A DNA stretch of 64,000 bases from Escherichia coli (GTDB lineage: Bacteria; Pseudomonadota; Gammaproteobacteria; Enterobacterales; Enterobacteriaceae): NCBI RefSeq assembly GCF_003018235.1, contig NZ_CP027437.1; one strand, written 5' to 3'. Position 1 is the stretch's first letter. Each line of letters starts with the position of its first letter. Positions 10,928-57,434 of this stretch are shown one piece after another. The position numbers and the translations under genes were made by a program. The notes beneath the pieces were generated by a model, which was not told the origin of the DNA, ran no database searches, and was given only the letters and a program-made list of their open reading frames with translations.

Positions 10928-12244
10928 TCAGTTAGTTGCCGTTTGAGAACGGAAACGGGCAAAGATAAAGATGACTGCGAAGCAGAGTGCCGGGATCAGT
11001 TCGGCAGTGGGGATGTTGCCCGCTGCGTCACTGACAAAACCCATGACCGGAGTGACAATACCGCCGCCAATAATGGTCATAACGATGAAGGACGAACCGT
11101 ATTTGGTGTCCTGGCCGAGATTCTTAATGCCCAGCGAGAAGATTGTTGGGTACTGAATCGACATAAAGGCACTGCATAATGTCAGGGCTATTAAGCCCAC
11201 ATGACCGCCAGCGAAGGCTGAGATCAGGCACAGTGCCATAGCGATTAATGCGTAGGCTGCCAGGACTTTGTGTGGTGCGAAGCGACTGATGAGCCAGGTA
11301 CCGGTGAAACGACCAATAAAGAAGCACACCATGGTTCCGGTTAAATAGTTAGCGGCAAAGCCTGCGGTCATACCTGGAATTTCTTCTACAGCGTAGCGAA
11401 TCAAATAGCTCCAGCAGGCCGTTTGCGCGCCGACATAGCAGAATTGCGCTAATACCGCCCAGCGCCAGTGACGAATACGCGCCAGACGAGAAAGCGATGC
11501 GGAGAACGATCCTTGTTTGGCGTCACTGTGATTATCACTCTGCAATGCCGGGAATTTCGTCAGCATGATCAGCAGGGCGACCAGTAACACGATAGCCACG
11601 ATGATCATATAAGGTGTCTGTACCGATAATACCAGGCTGTGTTTATACGCACTCAATTGCTCTGGAGACATTTTATCGAGAACGTCTTGCGATTGATGTG
11701 GCACGTTAGACAAAATAAGACTTTGCCCAAAGACAACCGCGATAATTGCGCCAAACGAGTTAAATGTTTGCGCAAGATTTAAGCGGAAGTGACCACTGCT
11801 TTCCGGCCCTAATACCGTAACAAAAGGGTTTGCGGCAGTTTCCAGACAACCTAATCCGGCTGCAATAATAAATAGGCCAACTAAAAATAAGGTGTAGTTC
11901 ATTATTTCTGCAGCGGGCCAGAATAATGCAGCGCCCAAGGCATATAAAAATAATCCGGTAATAATCCCTGCTTTATAACTGAGTTTTTTCATCAATATCC
12001 CAGCAGGGATTGGGATAATGAAATAACCAAAGTAAAAGGCCGATTGGATCAGGCCAGCCTGGAAATTTGTCAGCGTAAAAGCCTGCTGGAATTGAGGTAA
12101 TAAAATGTCGTTAAGGTTATTGGCTACCGCCCAAAGAAAAAACAGTGAGCACAGCAGCGCGAATGGAATAATGTAACTTCTGCTTTGCCCTGCATCTTTA
12201 TCTACCGCACGGTAACTCTGCGTTTGTATTGATGTGTTTCCCAT
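10928..12244 (-). CDS. fucP: L-fucose:H+ symporter (MFS)
   Basis: 438-aa polytopic membrane ORF, first gene of the fucPIKUR operon. Confidence 0.92.
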   Translation of the reverse strand: MGNTSIQTQSYRAVDKDAGQSRSYIIPFALLCSLFFLWAVANNLNDILLPQFQQAFTLTNFQAGLIQSAFYFGYFIIPIPAGILMKKLSYKAGIITGLFLYALGAALFWPAAEIMNYTLFLVGLFIIAAGLGCLETAANPFVTVLGPESSGHFRLNLAQTFNSFGAIIAVVFGQSLILSNVPHQSQDVLDKMSPEQLSAYKHSLVLSVQTPYMIIVAIVLLVALLIMLTKFPALQSDNHSDAKQGSFSASLSRLARIRHWRWAVLAQFCYVGAQTACWSYLIRYAVEEIPGMTAGFAANYLTGTMVCFFIGRFTGTWLISRFAPHKVLAAYALIAMALCLISAFAGGHVGLIALTLCSAFMSIQYPTIFSLGIKNLGQDTKYGSSFIVMTIIGGGIVTPVMGFVSDAAGNIPTAELIPALCFAVIFIFARFRSQTATN

Positions 12245-12790
12245 AGCATCCTCTTAGGTTCAGAAGCTTAAGCACGTAATCGGTTATGTTTTCAAAAGTG
12301 CAAAACCAGCGAGTTCGGGCTTCATATCAGTGAATATTTGCCTGTCAGAAATGAACTCATGGATTCATTTTCAAATAAAAAACGCTCTGTAATATGACGG
12401 CGGTCACACTTATTAGCTGGGAGGTGACTTTATGTGACTACCATCACTTTAATAATCGAAATTTCATGCCCGTTTCAGAAAATAAATCATAAAAAACACA
12501 AACCCGATGACCGTATTAATTGTTTGTGCCGAAAACGGGCATTTCTGGCGAGGGGGAATGGAAAAATGACCGTTTTGATAAATATTTTTAAGAGCGGTCA
12601 TTTTTAATAGGGTTATAAAAAGAGAACTTGCAGTTATTTACTGTGATTAGTTGAACCAGGTCACAAAATATAAGCTTGTGAATTTCTTTCTGGTTAATCA
12701 GGAAGAAGATGGTGGGTAATTAAACGGCTAATTCAATAGTGTGAAAGGAACAACATTATTGCCCTGTTTTGAATCAGAGAGAGGTAGCTA
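12245..12790. promoter_or_regulatory. Divergent fucPIKUR / fucAO control region with a candidate CRP site
   Basis: 546-bp AT-rich non-coding interval between divergent operons; TGTGA-N6-TCACT at 12433-12448 is a near-consensus CRP half-site pair. No FucR site could be assigned from sequence alone. Confidence 0.5.
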
Positions 12791-13438
12791 ATGGAACGAA
12801 ATAAACTTGCTCGTCAGATTATTGACACTTGCCTGGAAATGACCCGCCTAGGACTGAACCAGGGGACAGCGGGTAACGTCAGTGTACGTTATCAGGATGG
12901 GATGCTGATTACGCCTACTGGTATTCCATATGAAAAACTGACGGAGTCGCATATTGTCTTTATTGATGGCAACGGTAAACATGAGGAAGGAAAACTCCCC
13001 TCAAGCGAATGGCGTTTCCATATGGCGGCCTATCAAAGCAGACCGGATGCCAACGCGGTTGTTCACAATCATGCCGTTCATTGCACAGCAGTTTCCATTC
13101 TTAACCGACCGATCCCCGCTATTCACTACATGATTGCGGCGGCTGGCGGTAATTCTATTCCTTGCGCGCCTTATGCGACCTTTGGAACACGCGAACTTTC
13201 TGAACATGTTGCGCTGGCTCTCAAAAATCGTAAGGCAACTTTGTTACAACATCATGGGCTTATCGCTTGTGAGGTGAATCTGGAGAAAGCGTTATGGCTG
13301 GCGCATGAAGTTGAAGTGCTGGCGCAACTTTACCTGACGACCCTGGCGATTACGGACCCGGTGCCAGTGCTGAGCGATGAAGAGATTGCCGTAGTGCTGG
13401 AGAAATTCAAAACCTACGGGTTACGGATTGAAGAGTAA
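12791..13438 (+). CDS. fucA: L-fuculose-1-phosphate aldolase
   Basis: 215-aa ORF, class II aldolase. Confidence 0.92.
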   Translation: MERNKLARQIIDTCLEMTRLGLNQGTAGNVSVRYQDGMLITPTGIPYEKLTESHIVFIDGNGKHEEGKLPSSEWRFHMAAYQSRPDANAVVHNHAVHCTAVSILNRPIPAIHYMIAAAGGNSIPCAPYATFGTRELSEHVALALKNRKATLLQHHGLIACEVNLEKALWLAHEVEVLAQLYLTTLAITDPVPVLSDEEIAVVLEKFKTYGLRIEE

Positions 13439-14718: not shown

Positions 14719-16952
<2,234 letters not shown>

Positions 16953-17009: not shown

Positions 17010-18299
17010 TTAGCTGAACAGAGAGTAGAAGATTGCGGAGATTGCAATCAGACCCATCACGACAACGAATACGTTGCTGATGTGACCGCTGTACTTACGC
17101 ATTGCCGGTACTTTCTGAATTGCGTACATCGGCATCAGGAACAGGATCATCGCGATGATTGGGCCGCCCAGGGTTTCAATCATACCCAGGATGCTCGGGT
17201 TCAGGGTGGCAACAATCCAGGTCGTTACCAGCATGAACAGCGCAGTGATACGGTTCAGCTTGTTGATTTCGATAGACTTACCTTTACCACGCAGAGATTT
17301 AATCACCATACCGTTGAAGCCTTCACGTGCGCCCAGGTAGTGGCCGAGGAAGGATTTGGTGATAGCGATAATCGCGATAATCGGAGCCATCCACGCGATA
17401 ACCGGTGCGTTAAAGTGGTTAGCCAGGTAAGACAGAATCGAGATGTTCTGCTCTTTAGCCGCAGCCAGGTCTGCCGGAGTCAGGCTCAGTACGCAGCTGA
17501 AGACGAAGAACATTACGGTCAGCACCATCATGATGTGTGCGAATGCCAGGATCTTCGAACATTTCTGTTCTGCCATATCGCCGTACTCTTCACGCTTCGC
17601 AACGGCGAAAGAAGAGATGATCGGAGAGTGGTTGAACGAGAACACCATTACCGGAATTGCCAGCCACAGGGTCATCCACAGACCGTTTCCGGTTGCAGAT
17701 GCAGTGTCCAGAGACAGCGTTTCCAGTGCTGCGCCGTTCCACTGCGGGATCAGGTACAGAGCCAGCAGCATCAGTACGCCAACAAACGGGAATACCAGAA
17801 TACTCATCGCTTTAACGATCATCTGCTCACCGAAGCGAACGATGGTCATCATACCCACGATCAGGATCAGCGACAGAATCGCACGCGGCGGTGGCGTCAT
17901 ACCCAGCTGGTGAGACATGAAGCTTTCAACTGTATTGGTGATTGCCACGCTATAAACCAGCAGGATCGGGTAGATAGCGAAGAAGTAGAGCAGGGTAATC
18001 AGTTTACCTGCGCCAATACCAAAGTGTTCTTCTACAACCTCGGTGATGTCTTCGCCCGGGTTTTTACCAGACAGTACGAAGCGAGTCAGACCGCGGTGAG
18101 CAAAAAATGTCATCGGGAACGCAAGGATAGCCATGATGATCAGCGGGATCATACCGCCAACACCGGCGTTGATTGGCAGGAACAGCACGCCCGCGCCGAT
18201 TGCCGTGCCGTAAAGGCCCAGCATCCACATGGTGTCTGTCTTGCGCCAGGCACTACGAGAGTCTTTCGACGCAATCGTGCTGGTTTGAGTCGTTTCCAT
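17010..18299 (-). CDS. sdaC: Serine:H+ symporter (HAAAP family)
   Basis: 429-aa polytopic membrane ORF. Confidence 0.92.
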
Positions 18300-18807
18300 C
18301 TATTTCTCCTGGAGGAATGCAAATAATTCAGCTTTTAGCCAGTTCAGCCCGGGAAGGTGCCTGACCGTAAAAATGAAATCTGTCTATCGGCGATGGCTTA
18401 ATCATTTACCGCCGTAATAATTTGAGGGCGGAAAGATACACACAAGTTATGTATCTATCAGTGATCTTGATCCCAAATACAATAATCTACTTGGAAGATA
18501 GATTATCCCAACGCTTTACTCTGTAAATCAAAAGTAAAGAGAATTTAAGGGCAATATTTGCCCATTAAACGACATCTGACTTCTTCCGGGGCGCGCAATA
18601 TATGTAGGTTGAACTGAAAAAATCAATACTTTTAGTTAATCATGGCGATAATTTCTTTTTCATAGCGATAAAATGTGGTTTATGAAAATAGGGAAACGTT
18701 TGCGTTACAGCATAAATTGTATGACATATTAACTGTAATGATATTTATCGCGTGAGGGTGGTAAGAAACATTCATATAACAAATGAAATAAATTGATGGG
18801 TATGTGA

Positions 18808-18844
18808 CCAAAAACGAGAAAACCCGGCAACAAACGTCACCGGG
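18808..18844 (-). terminator. Probable intrinsic terminator of ppnN
   Basis: Immediately 3' of the ppnN stop on the minus strand: GC-rich hairpin CCCGGTGACGTTTGTTGCCGGG followed by TTTTCTCGTTTTTGG. Confidence 0.55.
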
Positions 18845-18853
18845 GGAGGGAGA

Positions 18854-20218
18854 TTACGTGCAGATTTCGTAGCAAGGGATGTAGGCTGAGCCTGGCAACT
18901 TCATACGATGCTGGGCAACAAAACCCTGTAGCAGGTCATCCATACGACGCATAATCTCTTTATCGCCGTTGATTTTATAAGGACCAAACTCTTCAATGGC
19001 GCGAATACCGACTTCTTTTACGTTACCCGCCACAATACCGGAGAACGCACGGCGCAGGTCGGCAGCCAGCACTTCAACGGGTTGATCCGGGTAAAGCTTC
19101 AGATTAGCCATATTCTCGTGAGACGGCTCAAACGGCATTTGCAAATCTGGCGCAATGCGCATTGACCAGTTAAAGCTGTAGGCATCGCCTGTGTCGCGGC
19201 GATTTTCTTTCACCAGCGGCATCGATTTTTTCATCTGACGAGCGACTTCAGCGGCGTCATCAATGATGATGCGGTAATGGCGGCGCGCGTTTTCACCCAA
19301 CGTATGCACGACAAACTCGTCCAGTACGCGGAAGTAGTCGGCGCTCTCTTTCGGGCCGGTGAGGATCAATGGTAAAACCTGATCTTTGTTGGCCGGGTTC
19401 ATTAAAATTCCCAGCAAATACAGCAACTCTTCTGCCGTACCCACACCGCCAGGGAAGATAATGATACCGTGAGCGATACGGACAAACGCTTCCAGACGTT
19501 TTTCGATATCCGGCATGATGATCAATTCGTTGATCAGCGGGTTAGGCGGTTCAGCGGCGATAATCGACGGCTCTGTCATACCAATAAAACGACTGTCTTT
19601 GTAACGCTGCTGTGCGTGTCCGACCGCAGCGCCTTTCATCGGCGCTTCCATCGCTCCCGGACCACAGCCGGTGCAGATATTCAGCTCACGCAGGCCCAGC
19701 TGATTCCCGACGCGACGGGCATACAAATACTCGTTTTCGTTAATTGAGTGCCCGCCCCAGCAGACCACCATATTTGGCGCTTCACCAACATGCAGCGCGC
19801 GAGCGTTACGCAAGATGGAAAAGACCAGGTTAGTGATGTGGACGGAGTTGTCGAGATTCAGGTTGGGAAAACGAACAGTATTATGGATTTGCCCGTAAAC
19901 GAAGAGAATGTCGCGCAGAACCGCGAACAAGTTGGCCTGCAAAGCGCGAATAATTCGCCCATCGACAAAAGCCTCTTCCGGGGGATTAATCAGTTCCAGC
20001 TTTACGCCGCGTTCACGGCGCAAGACGTTAATATCGAAATTTTCAAAACGAGACAGCAATTCTTTGCTGTTATCGGTCAAACTACCGGAGTTCAGTACGG
20101 CAAGTGAACAGTTGCGAAACAGTTGATAGAGGTCGCTGCTGGCGGTGCGTTTAAGCATATCCACTTCCAGCTGCGACAACATATCCATGGAGCCAAGCGG
20201 GCTAATATGTGTAATCAA
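18854..20218 (-). CDS. ppnN: Pyrimidine/purine nucleotide 5'-monophosphate nucleosidase (LOG-family, YgdH)
   Basis: 454-aa ORF with a LOG-family core (PGGxGTxEE motif present as PGGVGTAEE). Confidence 0.9.
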
Positions 20219-39952: not shown

Positions 39953-40825
39953 TTACCAGCGACCGGACGCGCCGCCACCGCCAGAAGAACCGCCCCCGCC
40001 GCTAAATCCGCCGCCACTTGAGCCGCCACCGGAACCGCTGTTGTCTGAATGATAACTTCTACCAGATGCTTTTTTCTGAAGTACACATAAACAGGTAAAG
40101 ACCATAATGGTGGTGAAAGTAAAAAAGAAGAAAAATACAGCAATGGAAAAAGTTTTATCGGAGAACAGGAATAAATCTAAAAGATAGATTGCTGAAATAC
40201 AGACACTGCTTTTACATGCGCGACAAAAATTACTGCCTTGATGAAAAAACCAGAAAGGGAAGAACATCACTGCAAATACCCAAAAAATAGCAAAGTAGTA
40301 ATGATCGCTGGAATACGCTGATTCACTTTCTGAAGGATTAGCCGAATATTGGTGTTGTGAAGTGAGTTGGTTATTTAAAGCGATTATAGCTAACTCTAAT
40401 CCCTTAGCTAATTTTTGTTGTTTAAATGCGGGTATCATGTTGCTACGGATGATATCTCCAGCCAGAGCATCGGTTACCTTTTCTTCCAGCCCATAACCTA
40501 CCTGGATGCGGACAGCACGATCCGACAAGGCAACAATGATCAGTATCCCATCATTGCGTTTGGCATCTCCTAAACGCCAATTGTTAAAAACCCTTGTAGC
40601 ATATTGTTCAATTGTCTCGTCTTTGGTTGTGGGAATAATTAATACAGCAATTTGTACTTGGGTATTATTGAAAATAGATTCTAACTTCCGCGTCAGTTCT
40701 TTCTTTTCTTGTGAGTTTAAGCTACTCGTAAGATCCGTAACTTGTTGCTGTAATGATGGGACAATAGTTGGTTGGGCTGCAACAAAGGAACACACGAATG
40801 TAAACATTAGTATGAAATAGCGCAT
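39953..40825 (-). CDS. ygcG: TPM-domain membrane protein with a Gly/Ser-rich C-terminal tail
   Basis: Track ORF of 313 aa; start placed at [11 protein letters not shown]... (about 290 aa) giving a signal peptide; TPM/phosphatase-like domain, TM segments and a [22 protein letters not shown] tail. Confidence 0.8.
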
Positions 40826-41118
40826 TATAAATTTCTCATTAAATCTGGATAAATAAATTGACGGCGGCATCGGTAATTTGAGATTCGTTATCATTAAAAA
40901 CGAACACAGAAAAAATAAATATAAATTTGGTGAATGTTTTTGACATGATTAAATCCCTTTACTTTATTTATTTCTGACATAATACGTTACTCCCTTTTAT
41001 TATTAACGATCTGTTTCTCATTTTTCTTTAAACCTGCCTGTAACAGAATGTTAATAAGACATGATTGTTGTGGCAGGATCTGCAATAATTAACAATTATC
41101 CACTTCACAGAGAATGCT

Positions 41119-41790
41119 ATGCAGTACCCGATTAACGAGATGTTCCAGACCCTGCAAGGTGAGGGTTACTTTACCGGCGTCCCCGCTATTTTTATTCGTT
41201 TACAGGGATGCCCGGTCGGCTGTGCCTGGTGCGACACCAAACACACATGGGAAAAGCTTGAGGATCGGGAAGTTTCCCTTTTCAGCATTCTGGGTAAAAC
41301 GAAAGAGAGTGATAAGTGGGGAGCAGCAAGCAGTGAAGACTTACTCGCAGTCATCGGTCGTCAGGGATACACCGCGCGTCACGTGGTGATTACGGGTGGT
41401 GAGCCTTGCATTCATGATTTGCTACCACTGACTGATCTGCTCGAAAAGAACGGTTTTAGCTGCCAGATCGAAACCAGTGGTACTCATGAGGTACGCTGCA
41501 CACCGAATACCTGGGTTACCGTATCACCAAAGCTGAACATGCGCGGCGGCTATGAAGTGTTGTCACAGGCACTGGAGCGAGCCAACGAAATCAAGCATCC
41601 AGTGGGACGCGTACGTGATATTGAAGCACTGGATGAACTTTTGGCGACGCTGACCGATGATAAACCGCGAGTCATTGCACTGCAGCCGATTAGCCAAAAG
41701 GATGATGCCACACGATTGTGCATTGAAACCTGCATTGCGCGTAATTGGCGTTTGTCGATGCAAACACATAAATATCTAAATATTGCCTGA
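41119..41790 (+). CDS. queE: 7-carboxy-7-deazaguanine synthase (radical SAM)
   Basis: 223-aa ORF with a CxxxCxxC-type cluster (CPVGCAWC). Confidence 0.92.
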   Translation: MQYPINEMFQTLQGEGYFTGVPAIFIRLQGCPVGCAWCDTKHTWEKLEDREVSLFSILGKTKESDKWGAASSEDLLAVIGRQGYTARHVVITGGEPCIHDLLPLTDLLEKNGFSCQIETSGTHEVRCTPNTWVTVSPKLNMRGGYEVLSQALERANEIKHPVGRVRDIEALDELLATLTDDKPRVIALQPISQKDDATRLCIETCIARNWRLSMQTHKYLNIA

Positions 41791-42129
41791 TTAAACATTT
41801 ATAAGCGTTATAAATGGGTGGAACCTGTAAAGATTTCTACTCATTTATATTGTTTGTCGCCTCTGAAAACTCCTCCATTTTACCCATCCAGGGCTAATCA
41901 TTAGCATTCTCTACAAATTCTGCGGCATTAATTTTTCGCTGGAGTGAAAATTATTGCGGTAAAGTTTGGTAGATTTTAGTCGGTATAGGATTACTTTAAA
42001 TATTTAGCTTTTCAATCAATGAATTAAGTGCTCTTTAACATAATGGATGTGTTGTTTGTGTGATACTGTAAAGTTGGTAGATTGTGACTGGCTTAAAAAA
42101 TCATTAATTAATAATAGGTTATGTTTAGA
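41791..42129 (+). promoter_or_regulatory. AT-rich CRISPR leader
   Basis: About 340 bp of very AT-rich non-coding DNA ending ...TAATAGGTTATGTTTAGA immediately before the first repeat, the arrangement typical of type I-E leaders. Confidence 0.6.
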
Positions 42130-42438
42130 GAGTTCCCCGCGCGAGCGGGGATAAACCGGCCGTCGCCGGATCAGCCTGGCTATGCCAGCAGAGTTCCCCG
42201 CGCCAGCGGGGATAAACCGGACGAACAAAATAAAAACCAACTGAATGATGCGAGTTCCCCGCGCCAGCGGGGATAAACCGCGAACCCTTGAACCGATAAG
42301 GGCGCTGTTTTGGAGTTCCCCGCGCCAGCGGGGATAAACCGGATAGGTGTTACACATATGACCTGGCACTGGCGAGTTTCCCGCGCCAGCGGGGATAACC
42401 ATTCAGGTATGTTCAGGCCGGGCAGTTTCCCGCCCGGC
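42130..42438 (+). CRISPR. Orphan CRISPR array with type I-E 29-bp repeats (5 repeats, 4 x 32-bp spacers, plus a degenerate terminal unit)
   Basis: Repeats GAGTTCCCCGCGCCAGCGGGGATAAACCG at 42130-42158 (one C-to-G change), 42191-42219, 42252-42280, 42313-42341, and a degenerate 42374-42401; spacers at 42159-42190, 42220-42251, 42281-42312, 42342-42373. A further partial repeat-like GTTTCCCGCCCGGCC lies at 42425-42439 within a GC hairpin. No cas gene occurs in the window. Confidence 0.9.
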
Positions 42439-43951: not shown

Positions 43952-45229
43952 TTACTTGCTGCTAGCCATAGCAGGGGCGCTATCAGCAGTACGAATTTTT
44001 TGGAACAGCAAAAAGGTAAAGACGATCACCATGGCAAGCGCCGCCATGCCCATCAGCCACATATTGCGGTAGGCTTCTGCAGCGGGCAGGGTGTCTTGCC
44101 AGTAGCCGATAATCGGGTAAACGAAGACATCCGGCAGGAATCCAATCACCGAACAAATACCTACCGTGGTGCCCATAATGTAAGACGGTGTTCTCGCTTC
44201 GCCAGGGCAGGCCCAGTACAGCCCGCGTGAGGCGTAACAGGTGAATCCCAGCAGTAAAATCAGGCCAATCCCCATCGCGACCGATTGCGGGTTAGAGTTC
44301 GTGACGAGCAGGGCAGTTAACGCCAGCAAGCCGAGTACGGAAAGGATTTGGATCACGCGGGTAGGGGATTTCACTTTGCTGTAAGTGGTGATAATGCCGC
44401 CAAGCGGACCGCACAGTGCGCGGAAGATTTTGTTGATCACAATCCCCATGTAGCTCGCCGCCACCAGCGACATACCGTACATTTCGGTCAGATAGTTGGT
44501 GGAGTAACTCAGAATGGCGTAGATGGTGAAGACACCAAAAATCACCATGCTGCAATACCAGGTGGTGCTGATGCGCAAAACGGCCAGGATGTCGCTAAGC
44601 TGGAATGACTGTTTTTCTTCGTTATTGGTATTGCGTAGGTTGTTGTTATCGCTAACAAAAAACCAACACAAAATGCCCAGCAGAATGTAAACCACACTAT
44701 AGATAATAATGACCGTTTTCAGGCTGGCGCTGTCATCCGGTGCAAAGCGAGAAAAGACCCACATGGTAAACACCGCCAGCGACATTACACCGACGCCGCG
44801 CAGCCCTTCCATCCAGCCCATAATTTTCCCTTGCTCGCTATGATCGCCCAGCAACGATGCGGCTTTAATCGACACCGACCACAGCATTAAAATCGTCGTT
44901 ATCGCAAAGGCGACCTGAATACAGAGCATTACCCACAGCGGTGGATATGTTGCCATTAACAGACCCAGTAATCCGGTAATGATCATCGCGGAAGTAATCA
45001 TTTTGCGGTGTGAAAATTTATCGGCAATAACGCCGCTGGGGGCATAAAGAATAATAGCCGCAATACCAAAGGTACTCATTATTAAACCTATCTCGGTATT
45101 GCTGAATCCCATAAATTTCGCCATGGGAATTTGATAAATATAACGTAAATAAGCCAGGTCGAAACTAACGCCGCCGCTAAAACTAATTATCGCGAGGGTT
45201 ATCCAACGGCGATATGAGTTGTGTTGCAT
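43952..45229 (-). CDS. yqcE: MFS transporter
   Basis: 425-aa polytopic membrane ORF in the same orientation as ygcE. Confidence 0.85.
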   Translation of the reverse strand: MQHNSYRRWITLAIISFSGGVSFDLAYLRYIYQIPMAKFMGFSNTEIGLIMSTFGIAAIILYAPSGVIADKFSHRKMITSAMIITGLLGLLMATYPPLWVMLCIQVAFAITTILMLWSVSIKAASLLGDHSEQGKIMGWMEGLRGVGVMSLAVFTMWVFSRFAPDDSASLKTVIIIYSVVYILLGILCWFFVSDNNNLRNTNNEEKQSFQLSDILAVLRISTTWYCSMVIFGVFTIYAILSYSTNYLTEMYGMSLVAASYMGIVINKIFRALCGPLGGIITTYSKVKSPTRVIQILSVLGLLALTALLVTNSNPQSVAMGIGLILLLGFTCYASRGLYWACPGEARTPSYIMGTTVGICSVIGFLPDVFVYPIIGYWQDTLPAAEAYRNMWLMGMAALAMVIVFTFLLFQKIRTADSAPAMASSK

Positions 45230-45547
45230 ATCGTATTCCCATTTGTAATAGACAAAAAAAAGAGAAAAGTAAGCCGCCCTTTCAGGTGGATTACTTTTCT
45301 CAGGTCTCTAGTAATTGCAATAAGAAATAACATGGAAAGTAGTGGTGTTGTGTGAGAGTAATCACGCTTCTGCTTTTTAAAATTATTTGACAATTCGAAT
45401 ATCACACTGTGATTACGATCACATTAGCGATTATGCCCTTATGATAAAAATTATCTCCAGTTACCAGAGATAATGAGAAAGGTAACTTCCCTCTCGCGGG
45501 GGAAGTTACCTTTCTTTTTTTTTGCCTTACGGAAATTGGAGCTAACT

Positions 45548-46333
45548 ATGTCAATCGAATCTCTCAATGCGTTCTCAATGGATTTTTTCTCCCTGAAAGG
45601 TAAAACCGCAATTGTTACCGGCGGGAATAGCGGTTTAGGCCAGGCATTTGCCATGGCGCTGGCCAAAGCAGGCGCAAATATCTTTATTCCAAGCTTCGTT
45701 AAAGATAACGGTGAAACAAAGGAAATGATTGAAAAACAGGGTGTTGAGGTGGACTTCATGCAGGTGGATATCACCGCAGAAGGCGCGCCGCAGAAGATAA
45801 TCGCCGCCTGTTGCGAACGTTTCGGTACCGTCGATATTCTGATTAACAATGCCGGTATTTGTAAGCTGAATAAGGTGCTGGACTTCGGTCGTGCCGACTG
45901 GGACCCGATGATTGATGTGAACCTGACCGCCGCATTCGAGTTAAGCTATGAAGCTGCAAAAATTATGATCCCGCAGAAAAGCGGTAAAATCATTAATATC
46001 TGTTCATTATTCTCTTACTTAGGTGGACAATGGTCACCTGCATATTCTGCCACTAAACATGCTCTTGCCGGGTTCACCAAAGCTTATTGTGATGAACTAG
46101 GTCAATATAATATTCAGGTAAATGGTATTGCTCCGGGATATTACGCTACCGATATCACTCTGGCGACCCGTAGTAATCCAGAAACTAACCAGCGCGTTCT
46201 TGATCATATTCCGGCAAACCGTTGGGGCGATACTCAGGATTTAATGGGCGCAGCCGTATTCCTCGCAAGTCCGGCATCGAATTATGTCAACGGACATTTA
46301 TTAGTGGTTGATGGCGGTTATTTAGTGCGCTAA
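45548..46333 (+). CDS. ygcW: Short-chain dehydrogenase/reductase (SDR)
   Basis: Start placed at MSIESLN... (261 aa); Rossmann motif TGGNSGLG and catalytic YxxxK (YSATK). Confidence 0.85.
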   Translation: MSIESLNAFSMDFFSLKGKTAIVTGGNSGLGQAFAMALAKAGANIFIPSFVKDNGETKEMIEKQGVEVDFMQVDITAEGAPQKIIAACCERFGTVDILINNAGICKLNKVLDFGRADWDPMIDVNLTAAFELSYEAAKIMIPQKSGKIINICSLFSYLGGQWSPAYSATKHALAGFTKAYCDELGQYNIQVNGIAPGYYATDITLATRSNPETNQRVLDHIPANRWGDTQDLMGAAVFLASPASNYVNGHLLVVDGGYLVR

Positions 46334-55722: not shown

Positions 55723-57434
55723 TGAGCGAAAAACATCCAGGGCCTTCAGTGGTCGAAGGAAAACTGACAGACGCCGAGCGCATGAAGCTTGAAAGCAACT
55801 ACCTGCGCGGCACCATTGCGGAAGATTTAAACGACGGTCTGACCGGTGGTTTTAAGGGCGACAACTTCCTGCTGATCCGCTTCCACGGCATGTATCAGCA
55901 GGATGACCGCGACATCCGCGCCGAACGTGCTGAACAGAAGCTGGAGCCACGTCATGCAATGCTGTTGCGCTGTCGTCTGCCGGGTGGGGTGATTACCACC
56001 AAACAGTGGCAGGCGATCGATAAATTTGCCGGTGAAAACACCATCTATGGCAGCATTCGCCTGACCAACCGCCAGACGTTTCAGTTCCACGGCATTCTGA
56101 AAAAGAACGTCAAACCGGTGCACCAGATGCTGCACTCGGTCGGTCTTGATGCGCTGGCGACTGCTAACGACATGAACCGTAACGTGCTGTGCACTTCGAA
56201 CCCGTTCGAGTCGCAGCTGCACGCGGAAGCCTATGAATGGGCGAAGAAAATCTCTGAACATCTGCTGCCTCGTACCCGCGCGTATGCAGAGATCTGGCTC
56301 GATCAGGAAAAAGTCGCCACTACTGATGAAGAGCCGATCCTTGGTCAGACCTACCTGCCGCGTAAGTTCAAAACCACGGTAGTGATCCCGCCGCAGAACG
56401 ATATCGATCTGCACGCCAACGACATGAACTTCGTGGCGATCGCCGAAAACGGCAAGCTGGTGGGCTTTAACCTGCTGGTGGGCGGTGGGCTTTCCATCGA
56501 GCACGGCAACAAGAAAACCTACGCCCGCACCGCGAGTGAGTTTGGCTATCTGCCGCTGGAGCATACACTGGCAGTGGCGGAAGCCGTCGTGACAACTCAG
56601 CGTGACTGGGGTAACCGAACCGATCGTAAAAATGCCAAAACCAAATACACGCTGGAGCGCGTGGGGGTTGAGACGTTTAAAGCGGAAGTGGAGCGTCGCG
56701 CGGGGATCAAATTTGAACCGATCCGTCCGTATGAGTTCACCGGACGCGGCGATCGTATTGGTTGGGTTAAGGGCATTGATGATAACTGGCACCTGACGCT
56801 GTTTATCGAAAATGGTCGCATCCTTGATTATCCGGGGCGTCCGCTGAAAACTGGCCTGCTGGAGATCGCGAAGATCCACAAAGGTGATTTCCGCATTACG
56901 GCGAACCAGAATCTGATCATCGCCGGTGTGCCGGAAAGCGAGAAAGCGAAGATCGAGAAGATCGCCAAAGAGAGCGGGTTAATGAATGCCGTCACGCCGC
57001 AGCGTGAAAACTCAATGGCCTGCGTGTCATTCCCGACTTGCCCGCTGGCGATGGCCGAAGCCGAGCGTTTCCTGCCGTCTTTTATCGACAACATCGATAA
57101 TTTAATGGCGAAACATGGTGTCAGCGATGAGCATATCGTGATGCGTGTAACAGGCTGCCCGAACGGTTGTGGTCGCGCGATGCTGGCGGAAGTGGGCCTG
57201 GTGGGTAAAGCGCCGGGTCGCTACAACCTGCATCTTGGCGGCAACCGCATTGGGACACGTATCCCACGGATGTATAAAGAAAACATCACCGAGCCGGAAA
57301 TCCTGGCGTCGCTTGATGAACTGATAGGGCGCTGGGCGAAAGAGCGCGAAGCGGGTGAAGGCTTCGGCGACTTTACGGTGCGTGCGGGCATCATTCGCCC
57401 GGTGCTCGATCCGGCGCGCGATTTGTGGGATTAA
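55722..57434 (+). CDS. cysI: Sulfite reductase [NADPH] hemoprotein beta-component
   Basis: 570-aa ORF; start overlaps the cysJ stop; siroheme/4Fe-4S Cys motifs ([10 protein letters not shown]...CPNGC). Confidence 0.95.

Follow-up and report, generated by a model that had tools for sequence, protein, structure and literature searches.

The 554 bp that separate ppnN from sdaC (18300-18853 of the 64,000-nucleotide stretch of E. coli DNA analyzed here, hereafter the window) are the control region of sdaCB, the E. coli operon for serine uptake and deamination. Nearly every part of this region has been described before and, because nearly all of its components are in print, we count it as already known. 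The modestly new elements are a predicted and conserved class II promoter (P2), the conservation of a PurR box, and a fixed distance of 232 bp between that box and the CRP site. In the reading that we favor, to which we assign a probability of roughly 0.7, the region controls sdaCB both transcriptionally and post-transcriptionally, and does so with two promoters, P1 and P2 (Table 1). Published experiments cover the binding of YieP, PurR, and CRP, the effect of ArcZ, and the cAMP-independent expression that results from mutations in the P1 -10 hexamer; the exact positions of the sites, their deep conservation, and their fixed geometry come from the present analysis. From these, we infer that P2 exists, where P1 and P2 start, and which regulator acts on which promoter.

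If this reading is correct, the ppnN terminator would be followed by an upstream module consisting of two YieP activator sites and the PurR operator. P1, a sigma-70 promoter, would then provide CRP-independent expression in nutrient-rich conditions, assisted by YieP from its two sites, and P1 and YieP together would account for the high expression of sdaC in rich glucose medium. About 164 bp further down would lie a conserved block, possibly an Lrp site, and then the CRP site at -41.5 from P2, with P2 responsible for cAMP-CRP-dependent expression under carbon limitation or in stationary phase. Lrp, possibly bound at the block next to the CRP site, would repress, whilst ArcZ and Hfq would mask the shared ribosome-binding site and so cap the translation of either transcript. 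In cya suppressors, P2 would be dead without cAMP, and selection would make P1 consensus.

Table 1. Features of the ppnN-sdaC gap, ordered from ppnN toward sdaC (positions are those of the window).
Feature	Positions	Strand	Details and basis
ppnN intrinsic terminator	18810-18844	-	Stem-loop 18844-18823, U-rich tail to ~18810
YieP binding site 1, ATTTGTTATATGAAT	18770-18784	-	Exact match to a site in PMC8282354; ~-187 from the P1 start
YieP binding site 2, ATATGTCATACAATT	18715-18729	-	Exact match to a site in PMC8282354; ~-132 from the P1 start
PurR operator, ACGCAAACGTTTCCCT (plus strand AGGGAAACGTTTGCGT)	18690-18705	-	Conserved block and ChIP-chip motif
Direct repeat, TTATCGCTATGA / TTATCGCCATGA	18640-18671	-	Repeat finder; 20 bp start to start
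Promoter P1 (sigma-70)	18597-18626	-	-35 TTGATT (18626-18621), 18-bp spacer, -10 TATATT (18602-18597)
Conserved block, AGT(G/A)GATTATTG(C/T)A	18479-18492	-	Just upstream of the CRP site; conserved across genera
CRP binding site, TGGGATCAAGATCACT	18460-18475	-	Centre 18467.5; ChIP-seq in ETEC
Promoter P2 (predicted, class II CRP-dependent)	18433-18461	-	-35-like CTGATA (18461-18456), 17-bp spacer, -10 TATCTT (18438-18433)
Shared sdaC leader	18300-18426	-	~127 nt from P2; a P1 transcript would extend to ~18590
Shine-Dalgarno region, CCUCCAGGAGAAAUA, and ArcZ pairing site	18301-18315	-	Published pairing, recomputed duplex

Judging from the open reading frame listing and the K-12 annotation, the minus strand carries ppnN (18854-20218), sdaC (17010-18299), and sdaB (15585-16952), with an intergenic gap between the first two of exactly 554 bp. 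A first-pass annotation, made from the sequence, had described this gap as AT-rich, with short inverted repeats and the terminator of ppnN at its right edge, and all three points were borne out. The GC content is 37.5% over the gap and 33.4% over 18400-18800, compared with 50.9% for the window, and just 1.1% of 554-bp windows reach the AT-richness of the gap. The repeat finder returned five pairs of inverted repeats of 8-15 nt, none of them remarkable. Similarly AT-rich segments (554-bp GC of 0.40 or less) are located at ~11950-13000, ~40050-41350, ~41550-42250, and ~44900-45750, with a minimum of 0.327 near 40550, and the first of these holds two one-mismatch CRP-like sites (12393 and 12433). 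A 751-bp query over the region matched 5425 of 5426 complete E. coli genomes, with 98.1% identity to K-12. Only five of the 5425 matching genomes lack at least 80% coverage of the query, and one of these is the clinical E. coli 23AR0151 (NZ_CP195448.1; locus L084, 1444-2500), in which IS903B replaces the sdaC-proximal part of the gap together with the N-terminus of sdaC, and sdaC is annotated as a pseudogene.

The terminator of ppnN is the single site returned by a terminator scan of the gap. It comprises a 9-pair stem, with six G-C pairs, and a 4-nt loop, followed by TTTTCTCGTTTTT, and the hairpin energy is -14.9 kcal/mol. A Term-seq 3′ end at K-12 position 2927709, labelled as primary for ygdH (which is ppnN), corresponds to ~18818 in the window, right after the hairpin; a GC-rich hairpin and U-tract are therefore accompanied by an in vivo 3′ end within the U-tract. 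The next entry of the Term-seq table after 2927709 is 2928350, and the table thus gives no other 3′ end for the gap, whichever the strand. The 3′ end at 2928350 (~18178 in the window; score 1255, 'internal') is located 121 nt into the sdaC open reading frame, at a position where no obvious terminator is visible by eye, and could represent a processing site or premature termination.

For the comparative analysis, we fetched 80 enterobacterial sdaC loci. In 77 of them, ppnN was found in front of sdaC at a distance of 436-648 bp, and these 77 plus the window make up the 78 sequences referred to below. The first-pass annotation had proposed an alignment to other enterobacterial genomes as a search for conserved blocks, and blocks were indeed found. 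Conservation of the gap is concentrated in a few of them, the strongest of which is 18495-18410. A footprint on a shorter evolutionary scale was obtained from six aligned Escherichia sequences. Between the named elements of the upstream half of the gap, 33-56 columns per 100 bp are variable, compared with 0-12.5 per 100 bp inside YieP sites 1 and 2, the PurR box, P1, the CRP block, the P2 core, and the Shine-Dalgarno/ArcZ site. Altogether, 7 columns are variable in the 159 bp of named elements and 105 in the remaining 395 bp (Fisher p = 2e-10); the limits of P2 and the CRP block were set after the cross-genus alignment had been seen and those of YieP, PurR, P1, and ArcZ were taken from the literature. 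Thus, both P1 and P2 appear to be constrained within Escherichia.

In the upstream module, Freddolino and colleagues described an occupancy peak within the gap that is specific to rich medium (PMC8282354). YieP was identified there by way of a pulldown, gel shift, comparison with ChIP-exo, and lacZ assays, and two sites were published, with site 2 backed by ChIP-exo, IPOD-HR, gel shift, and lacZ (PMC8282354). Within Escherichia, 1 of the 15 columns of site 1 is variable, in flanks that vary at 40-55 per 100 bp, and none of the 15 columns of site 2 varies. A candidate third promoter at the PurR box (TACAAT, 18721-18716) was rejected; it shares sequence with YieP site 2 and has no -35 that could serve it.

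The PurR box was first found independently, as a conserved block that looked PurR-like. With two mismatches to the 16-bp PurR palindrome ACGNAAACGTTTGCNT, AGGGAAACGTTTGCGT is the sole match with three or fewer mismatches in the 64-kb window. The same motif appears in Table 1 of Cho et al. (2011; PMC3159470) under a PurR ChIP-chip peak that is assigned to sdaC-sdaB (region 2,925,514-2,926,070), where the log2 enrichment is 2.08 with adenine and 0.83 without it. Across genera, the core of the box (C4, A5, A6, C8, G9, T11, T12, and C14) is nearly invariant. When four or fewer mismatches are allowed, 49 of the 78 loci have a PurR box that lies upstream of the CRP centre by 230-234 bp, and by exactly 232 bp in 38 of them, compared with a chance of 0.0008 per locus for a box at that distance. 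The spacing is held while the length of the gap (436-648 bp) and the distance from the CRP centre to the ATG (146-173 bp) vary. Such retention of length where sequence is not retained may point to helical phasing, or to a wrapped or looped complex.

Two observations weigh on the functional interpretation of the PurR box. Neither sdaC nor sdaB is among the genes that Cho et al. name as PurR-repressed under their conditions (PMC3159470), and its position at -108 from P1 is unusually far for a repressor, which counts against our best explanation. Nevertheless, because the box has been conserved in evolution, PurR binding at sdaC is probably functional, despite the lack of a reported expression effect in the ChIP study. 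The DNA bait of the YieP pulldown (18737-18552 in the window) includes the PurR box, and the lysate was first passed over lexA and purR promoter probes (PMC8282354), a passage that could have depleted it of PurR. PurR would be expected to show the same dependence on conditions as the rich-medium peak that was ascribed to YieP, and may therefore contribute to it. Between the PurR box and P1, a direct repeat spans -81 to -50 from P1, and its first TTATC shows partial conservation among genera. The spacing of the repeat amounts to two helical turns, and it could be a candidate binding site for an activator.

P1 matches the sigma-70 hexamers at 9 of 12 positions in the promoter scan and has a GC-rich discriminator. 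The scan found two such sites in 900 bp, when 2.4 were expected, and the match on its own is therefore no evidence for a promoter. However, cya mutants repeatedly gain +ATT or +A in the "-10 box" of the sdaC promoter, and these insertions raise sdaC expression independently of cAMP and allow the cya strain to grow on serine (Heyde, Frendorf and colleagues; PMC8546631, PMC10882989). The same group describes an sdaC -10 that is followed by a GC-rich discriminator (PMC8546631, PMC10882989). When the window is aligned with K-12, the +ATT insertion at K-12 2,927,928 maps inside TATATT and converts it to TATAAT. P1 consequently has sigma-70 hexamers within the usual 16-18 bp spacing, together with published mutations in a hexamer that change expression. 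We would place its start at ~18590 (K-12 ~2,927,937), which predicts a leader of ~290 nt. Within Escherichia, only 1 of its 30 columns is variable; in Salmonella it reads TTGATT-N18-TATCTT, and in more distant genera it is not evident. This narrow distribution counts against our best explanation, as does the statement of Frendorf et al. (2024) that experimental verification is lacking for any promoter of sdaC. Immediately downstream of where P1 would lie, most other genera have a conserved block, TAATGnTAGCCTTCGCGCC (e.g., at ~2225-2260 in loci L009, L020, L047, and L018), which E. coli replaces at 18575-18545 with sequence holding a perfect hairpin, GGGCAA-ATA-TTGCCC (18566-18552).

The CRP site that the first-pass annotation had proposed to look for is present and is backed by ChIP. 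In CRP ChIP-seq of ETEC, the sdaC peak lists the site AGTGATCTTGATCTCA (PMC4287617), which is identical to 18460-18475 of the window at 15 of 16 positions. TGGGATCAAGATCACT has two mismatches to the CRP consensus, TGTGA-N6-TCACA, and each of the 78 orthologous loci retains TGnGATCnnGATCACT. Elsewhere in the window, a perfect CRP consensus, TGTGATTACGATCACA, at 45408-45423 is the same sequence as that under the ETEC ygcW/yqcE CRP ChIP-seq peak, and CGTGATGCGTGTAACA, at 57137-57152, matches the cysI/cysH entry of the ETEC CRP table (PMC4287617).

At +29.5 from the CRP centre there is a hexamer that reads TATCTT in 70, TACATT in 5, and TATCGT in 3 of the 78 loci, which come from many enterobacterial genera. 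The spacing never changes, and T-12, A-11, and T-7 (TAnnnT) are invariant throughout. Within Escherichia, none of the 13 columns from the -10 to +1 is variable. A CRP site at -41.5 from a retained TAnnnT hexamer, with invariant spacing, argues for a second and deeply conserved class II promoter, P2, which would start at ~18426 (K-12 ~2,928,102) and give rise to a leader of ~127 nt. Counting against this part of our explanation, P2 has 8 of 12 sigma-70 matches, below the threshold of the scan, and its start would be a pyrimidine. CRP regulation has been reported for sdaC as a whole, as has expression in LB stationary phase, and the sdaC transcript is ~20-fold higher in rich glucose medium (PMC8282354). 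Expression in rich glucose medium on the one hand, and CRP dependence with stationary-phase expression on the other, would both fit two promoters with different inputs. The suggestion of multiple promoters in the first-pass annotation therefore holds to the extent that more than one is likely.

The leading alternative is that P1 is the only promoter (start ~18590, 5′ UTR of ~290 nt), that there is no P2, and that CRP, at ~+122, acts from downstream or on DNA architecture. Both experimental papers treat P1 as the core promoter of sdaC, the suppressors map there, and P1 is the promoter that scores 9 of 12 in a scan that P2 failed and is nearly invariant within Escherichia. However, the known sites of CRP activation are upstream, at -41.5 or -61.5 for example, and a site at +122 would therefore not explain CRP-dependent activation. 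That site is also exactly -41.5 from TAnnnT, with no change in length in 78 loci, whereas P1 is unrecognizable outside of Escherichia and Salmonella. Furthermore, the suppressors turn P1 into TATAAT so as to escape the need for cAMP, and a P1 that has to be made consensus fits a CRP-independent and normally weaker route. We consequently regard a single promoter as unlikely, albeit not far-fetched, and prefer the reading with both P1 and P2.

Beyond the existence of two promoters, one can envisage that P2, which is unannotated, is the ancestral main promoter of sdaCB across the Enterobacteriaceae in place of P1, the one usually drawn, and, in addition, that the 232±2 bp between PurR and CRP reflect a single phased complex of DNA and protein, such as one in which Lrp wraps the DNA. 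The distance corresponds to ~22 helical turns, in ~50 species, and such a complex, if true, would couple purine status to serine catabolism. We consider this combined proposal to be doubtful.

The conserved block just upstream of the CRP site (18479-18492) is a candidate site for Lrp or another factor. At 18478-18492, it provides the only match in the gap, with three mismatches, to what we take to be the Lrp SELEX consensus. Applied window-wide, this consensus found 84 matches compared with 80.7 expected, which is chance level. Thus, of the scan for Lrp and CRP sites that the first-pass annotation had proposed, the CRP part yielded a site and the Lrp part returned matches at the chance level. 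Freddolino and colleagues cite an EcoCyc Lrp site ~200 bp downstream of the YieP peak (PMC8282354). In the same area, a candidate hairpin or palindrome, ATCCAC-N7-GTGGAT (ATCTAT-N7-GTAGAT in E. coli, 18506-18482), which had looked compensatory between E. coli and Salmonella, was rejected as it is not consistently kept across 75 sequences.

The extent of the sdaC leader follows from the positions of the promoters. Accordingly, only the 127-290 nt of the gap nearest to sdaC would be 5′ UTR, and the rest would be untranscribed regulatory DNA. The first-pass annotation had entitled the entire gap an untranslated region, with room for a long 5′ UTR. A long 5′ UTR, of ~127 nt and/or ~290 nt, is indeed likely, but about half of the gap (18853 to ~18591) would be untranscribed, and the title does not suit this upstream half, which is regulatory DNA with a terminator, two YieP sites, the PurR operator, and P1. 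The length of the leader differs among genera, as seen from the range in the distance between the CRP centre and the ATG.

At the end of the leader, pairing of ArcZ with sdaC at -13 to -2/-3, and repression of sdaC by ArcZ in both Salmonella and E. coli, have been published (PMC11331407, PMC3546686). The duplex between K-12 ArcZ, which was located by Rfam, and sdaC has an energy of -13.2 kcal/mol over 18315-18301 of the window when computed with short-window RNAduplex; full-length input gave meaningless long interrupted duplexes. sdaC therefore has both seed complementarity at the ribosome-binding site and published ArcZ-dependent repression. None of the 16 columns of the Shine-Dalgarno/ArcZ site is variable within Escherichia, and TCCTCCAGGAGA is kept in most genera.

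It is very improbable that the long leader functions as a cis-acting RNA (a riboswitch, attenuator, or leader peptide) that senses serine or another metabolite. A leader of 127-290 nt is certainly available for such a purpose, E. coli has hairpins in it (the GGGCAA-ATA-TTGCCC hairpin described above, and CCGCC-N13-GGCGG at 18430-18408), and small upstream open reading frames (uORFs) of 15 aa from 18575 and 25 aa from 18405 are visible. However, the matches to Rfam over 17800-19400, at E up to 10, were no more than noise (SprX at 16.7 bits compared with a threshold of 80, a snoRNA, and speF), and RNAalifold on 23 genera gave -0.62 kcal/mol and three pairs, none of which covaries. The folding z-scores of the leader were -1.66 (long, 306 nt) and +0.54 (short, 143 nt), no better than shuffled sequence. 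The 15-codon uORF, MSFNGQILPLNSLYF (18575-18528), begins 15 nt past the predicted P1 start and, because a 1-nt insertion in K-12 shifts the frame to give a 29-codon open reading frame, the peptide is not conserved. Other genera lack the ATG of the 25-aa uORF, and the start of the 15-aa uORF is not retained there either. An attenuator or riboswitch would also have to be reconciled with Term-seq data that are without a 3′ end inside the leader.

Least probable of all is an independent small RNA, for which the first-pass annotation had seen room in the gap, whether on either strand or from the 3′ end of ppnN; although the gap offers length, AT-richness, and promoter-like hexamers, and large AT-rich gaps are a classic place to find small RNAs, Term-seq lists no 3′ end within it on either strand, its sole terminator-like site is that of ppnN, it has no Rfam match, no conserved structure, and unremarkable folding energies, the RefSeq annotation of K-12 has no feature there, and conservation falls on protein-binding motifs and not on a hairpin with a U-tract. 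With no Rfam match, structure, conserved uORF, or internal 3′ end, a riboswitch, attenuator, leader peptide, or small RNA gene is unsupported.

sdaCB governs how E. coli spends its serine, and on the reading that we favor, 554 bp would combine inputs for carbon (CRP), purines (PurR), amino acids (Lrp), the YieP signal, and oxygen (ArcZ). As by-products, the published sites are now mapped precisely onto one sequence and P2 is offered as a testable prediction, with little beyond such bookkeeping.

Several parts of the region have well-known counterparts. The sdaC box resembles the PurR operators of the purine regulon in being two mismatches away from the palindrome and in having an adenine-enhanced peak, the strength of which is the same as that of the glyA, purM, and carAB peaks in the ChIP-chip table (PMC3159470). 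Unlike those operators, it is located ~108 bp upstream of the nearest promoter start and not between a -35 and a -10; sdaC, unlike the targets of the regulon, is not named as PurR-repressed, and the target is serine catabolism rather than nucleotide synthesis. galP1 is a class II CRP-dependent promoter, with CRP centred at -41.5. P2 would be similar to such class II promoters in that CRP lies at -41.5 from the predicted start and overlaps a weak -35 (CTGATA), in its imperfect -10 (TATCTT), and in the binding of CRP in vivo, as seen by ChIP-seq; the definition of the class is quoted in PMC10882989. Unlike promoters of the galP1 type, P2 would be situated downstream of another promoter and inside the transcript of that promoter.

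At the level of translation, the ArcZ targets repressed at the ribosome-binding site include sdaC itself and STM3216 in Salmonella, insofar as the work is represented in a later paper (Papenfort 2009, via PMC11331407). In several other genera, GAUAC replaces GAAAU after GGAGA, a change that would be predicted to weaken the pairing with ArcZ. As a whole, the region is reminiscent of multi-input catabolic promoters with tandem starts, such as gal P1/P2, and of the tdcABC control region with its CRP and Lrp. Like these, it joins a carbon signal through CRP to nutrient-specific regulators and nucleoid-type proteins over several hundred bp. Unlike gal and tdcABC, however, the combination of YieP, PurR, CRP, Lrp, and ArcZ is particular to sdaCB.
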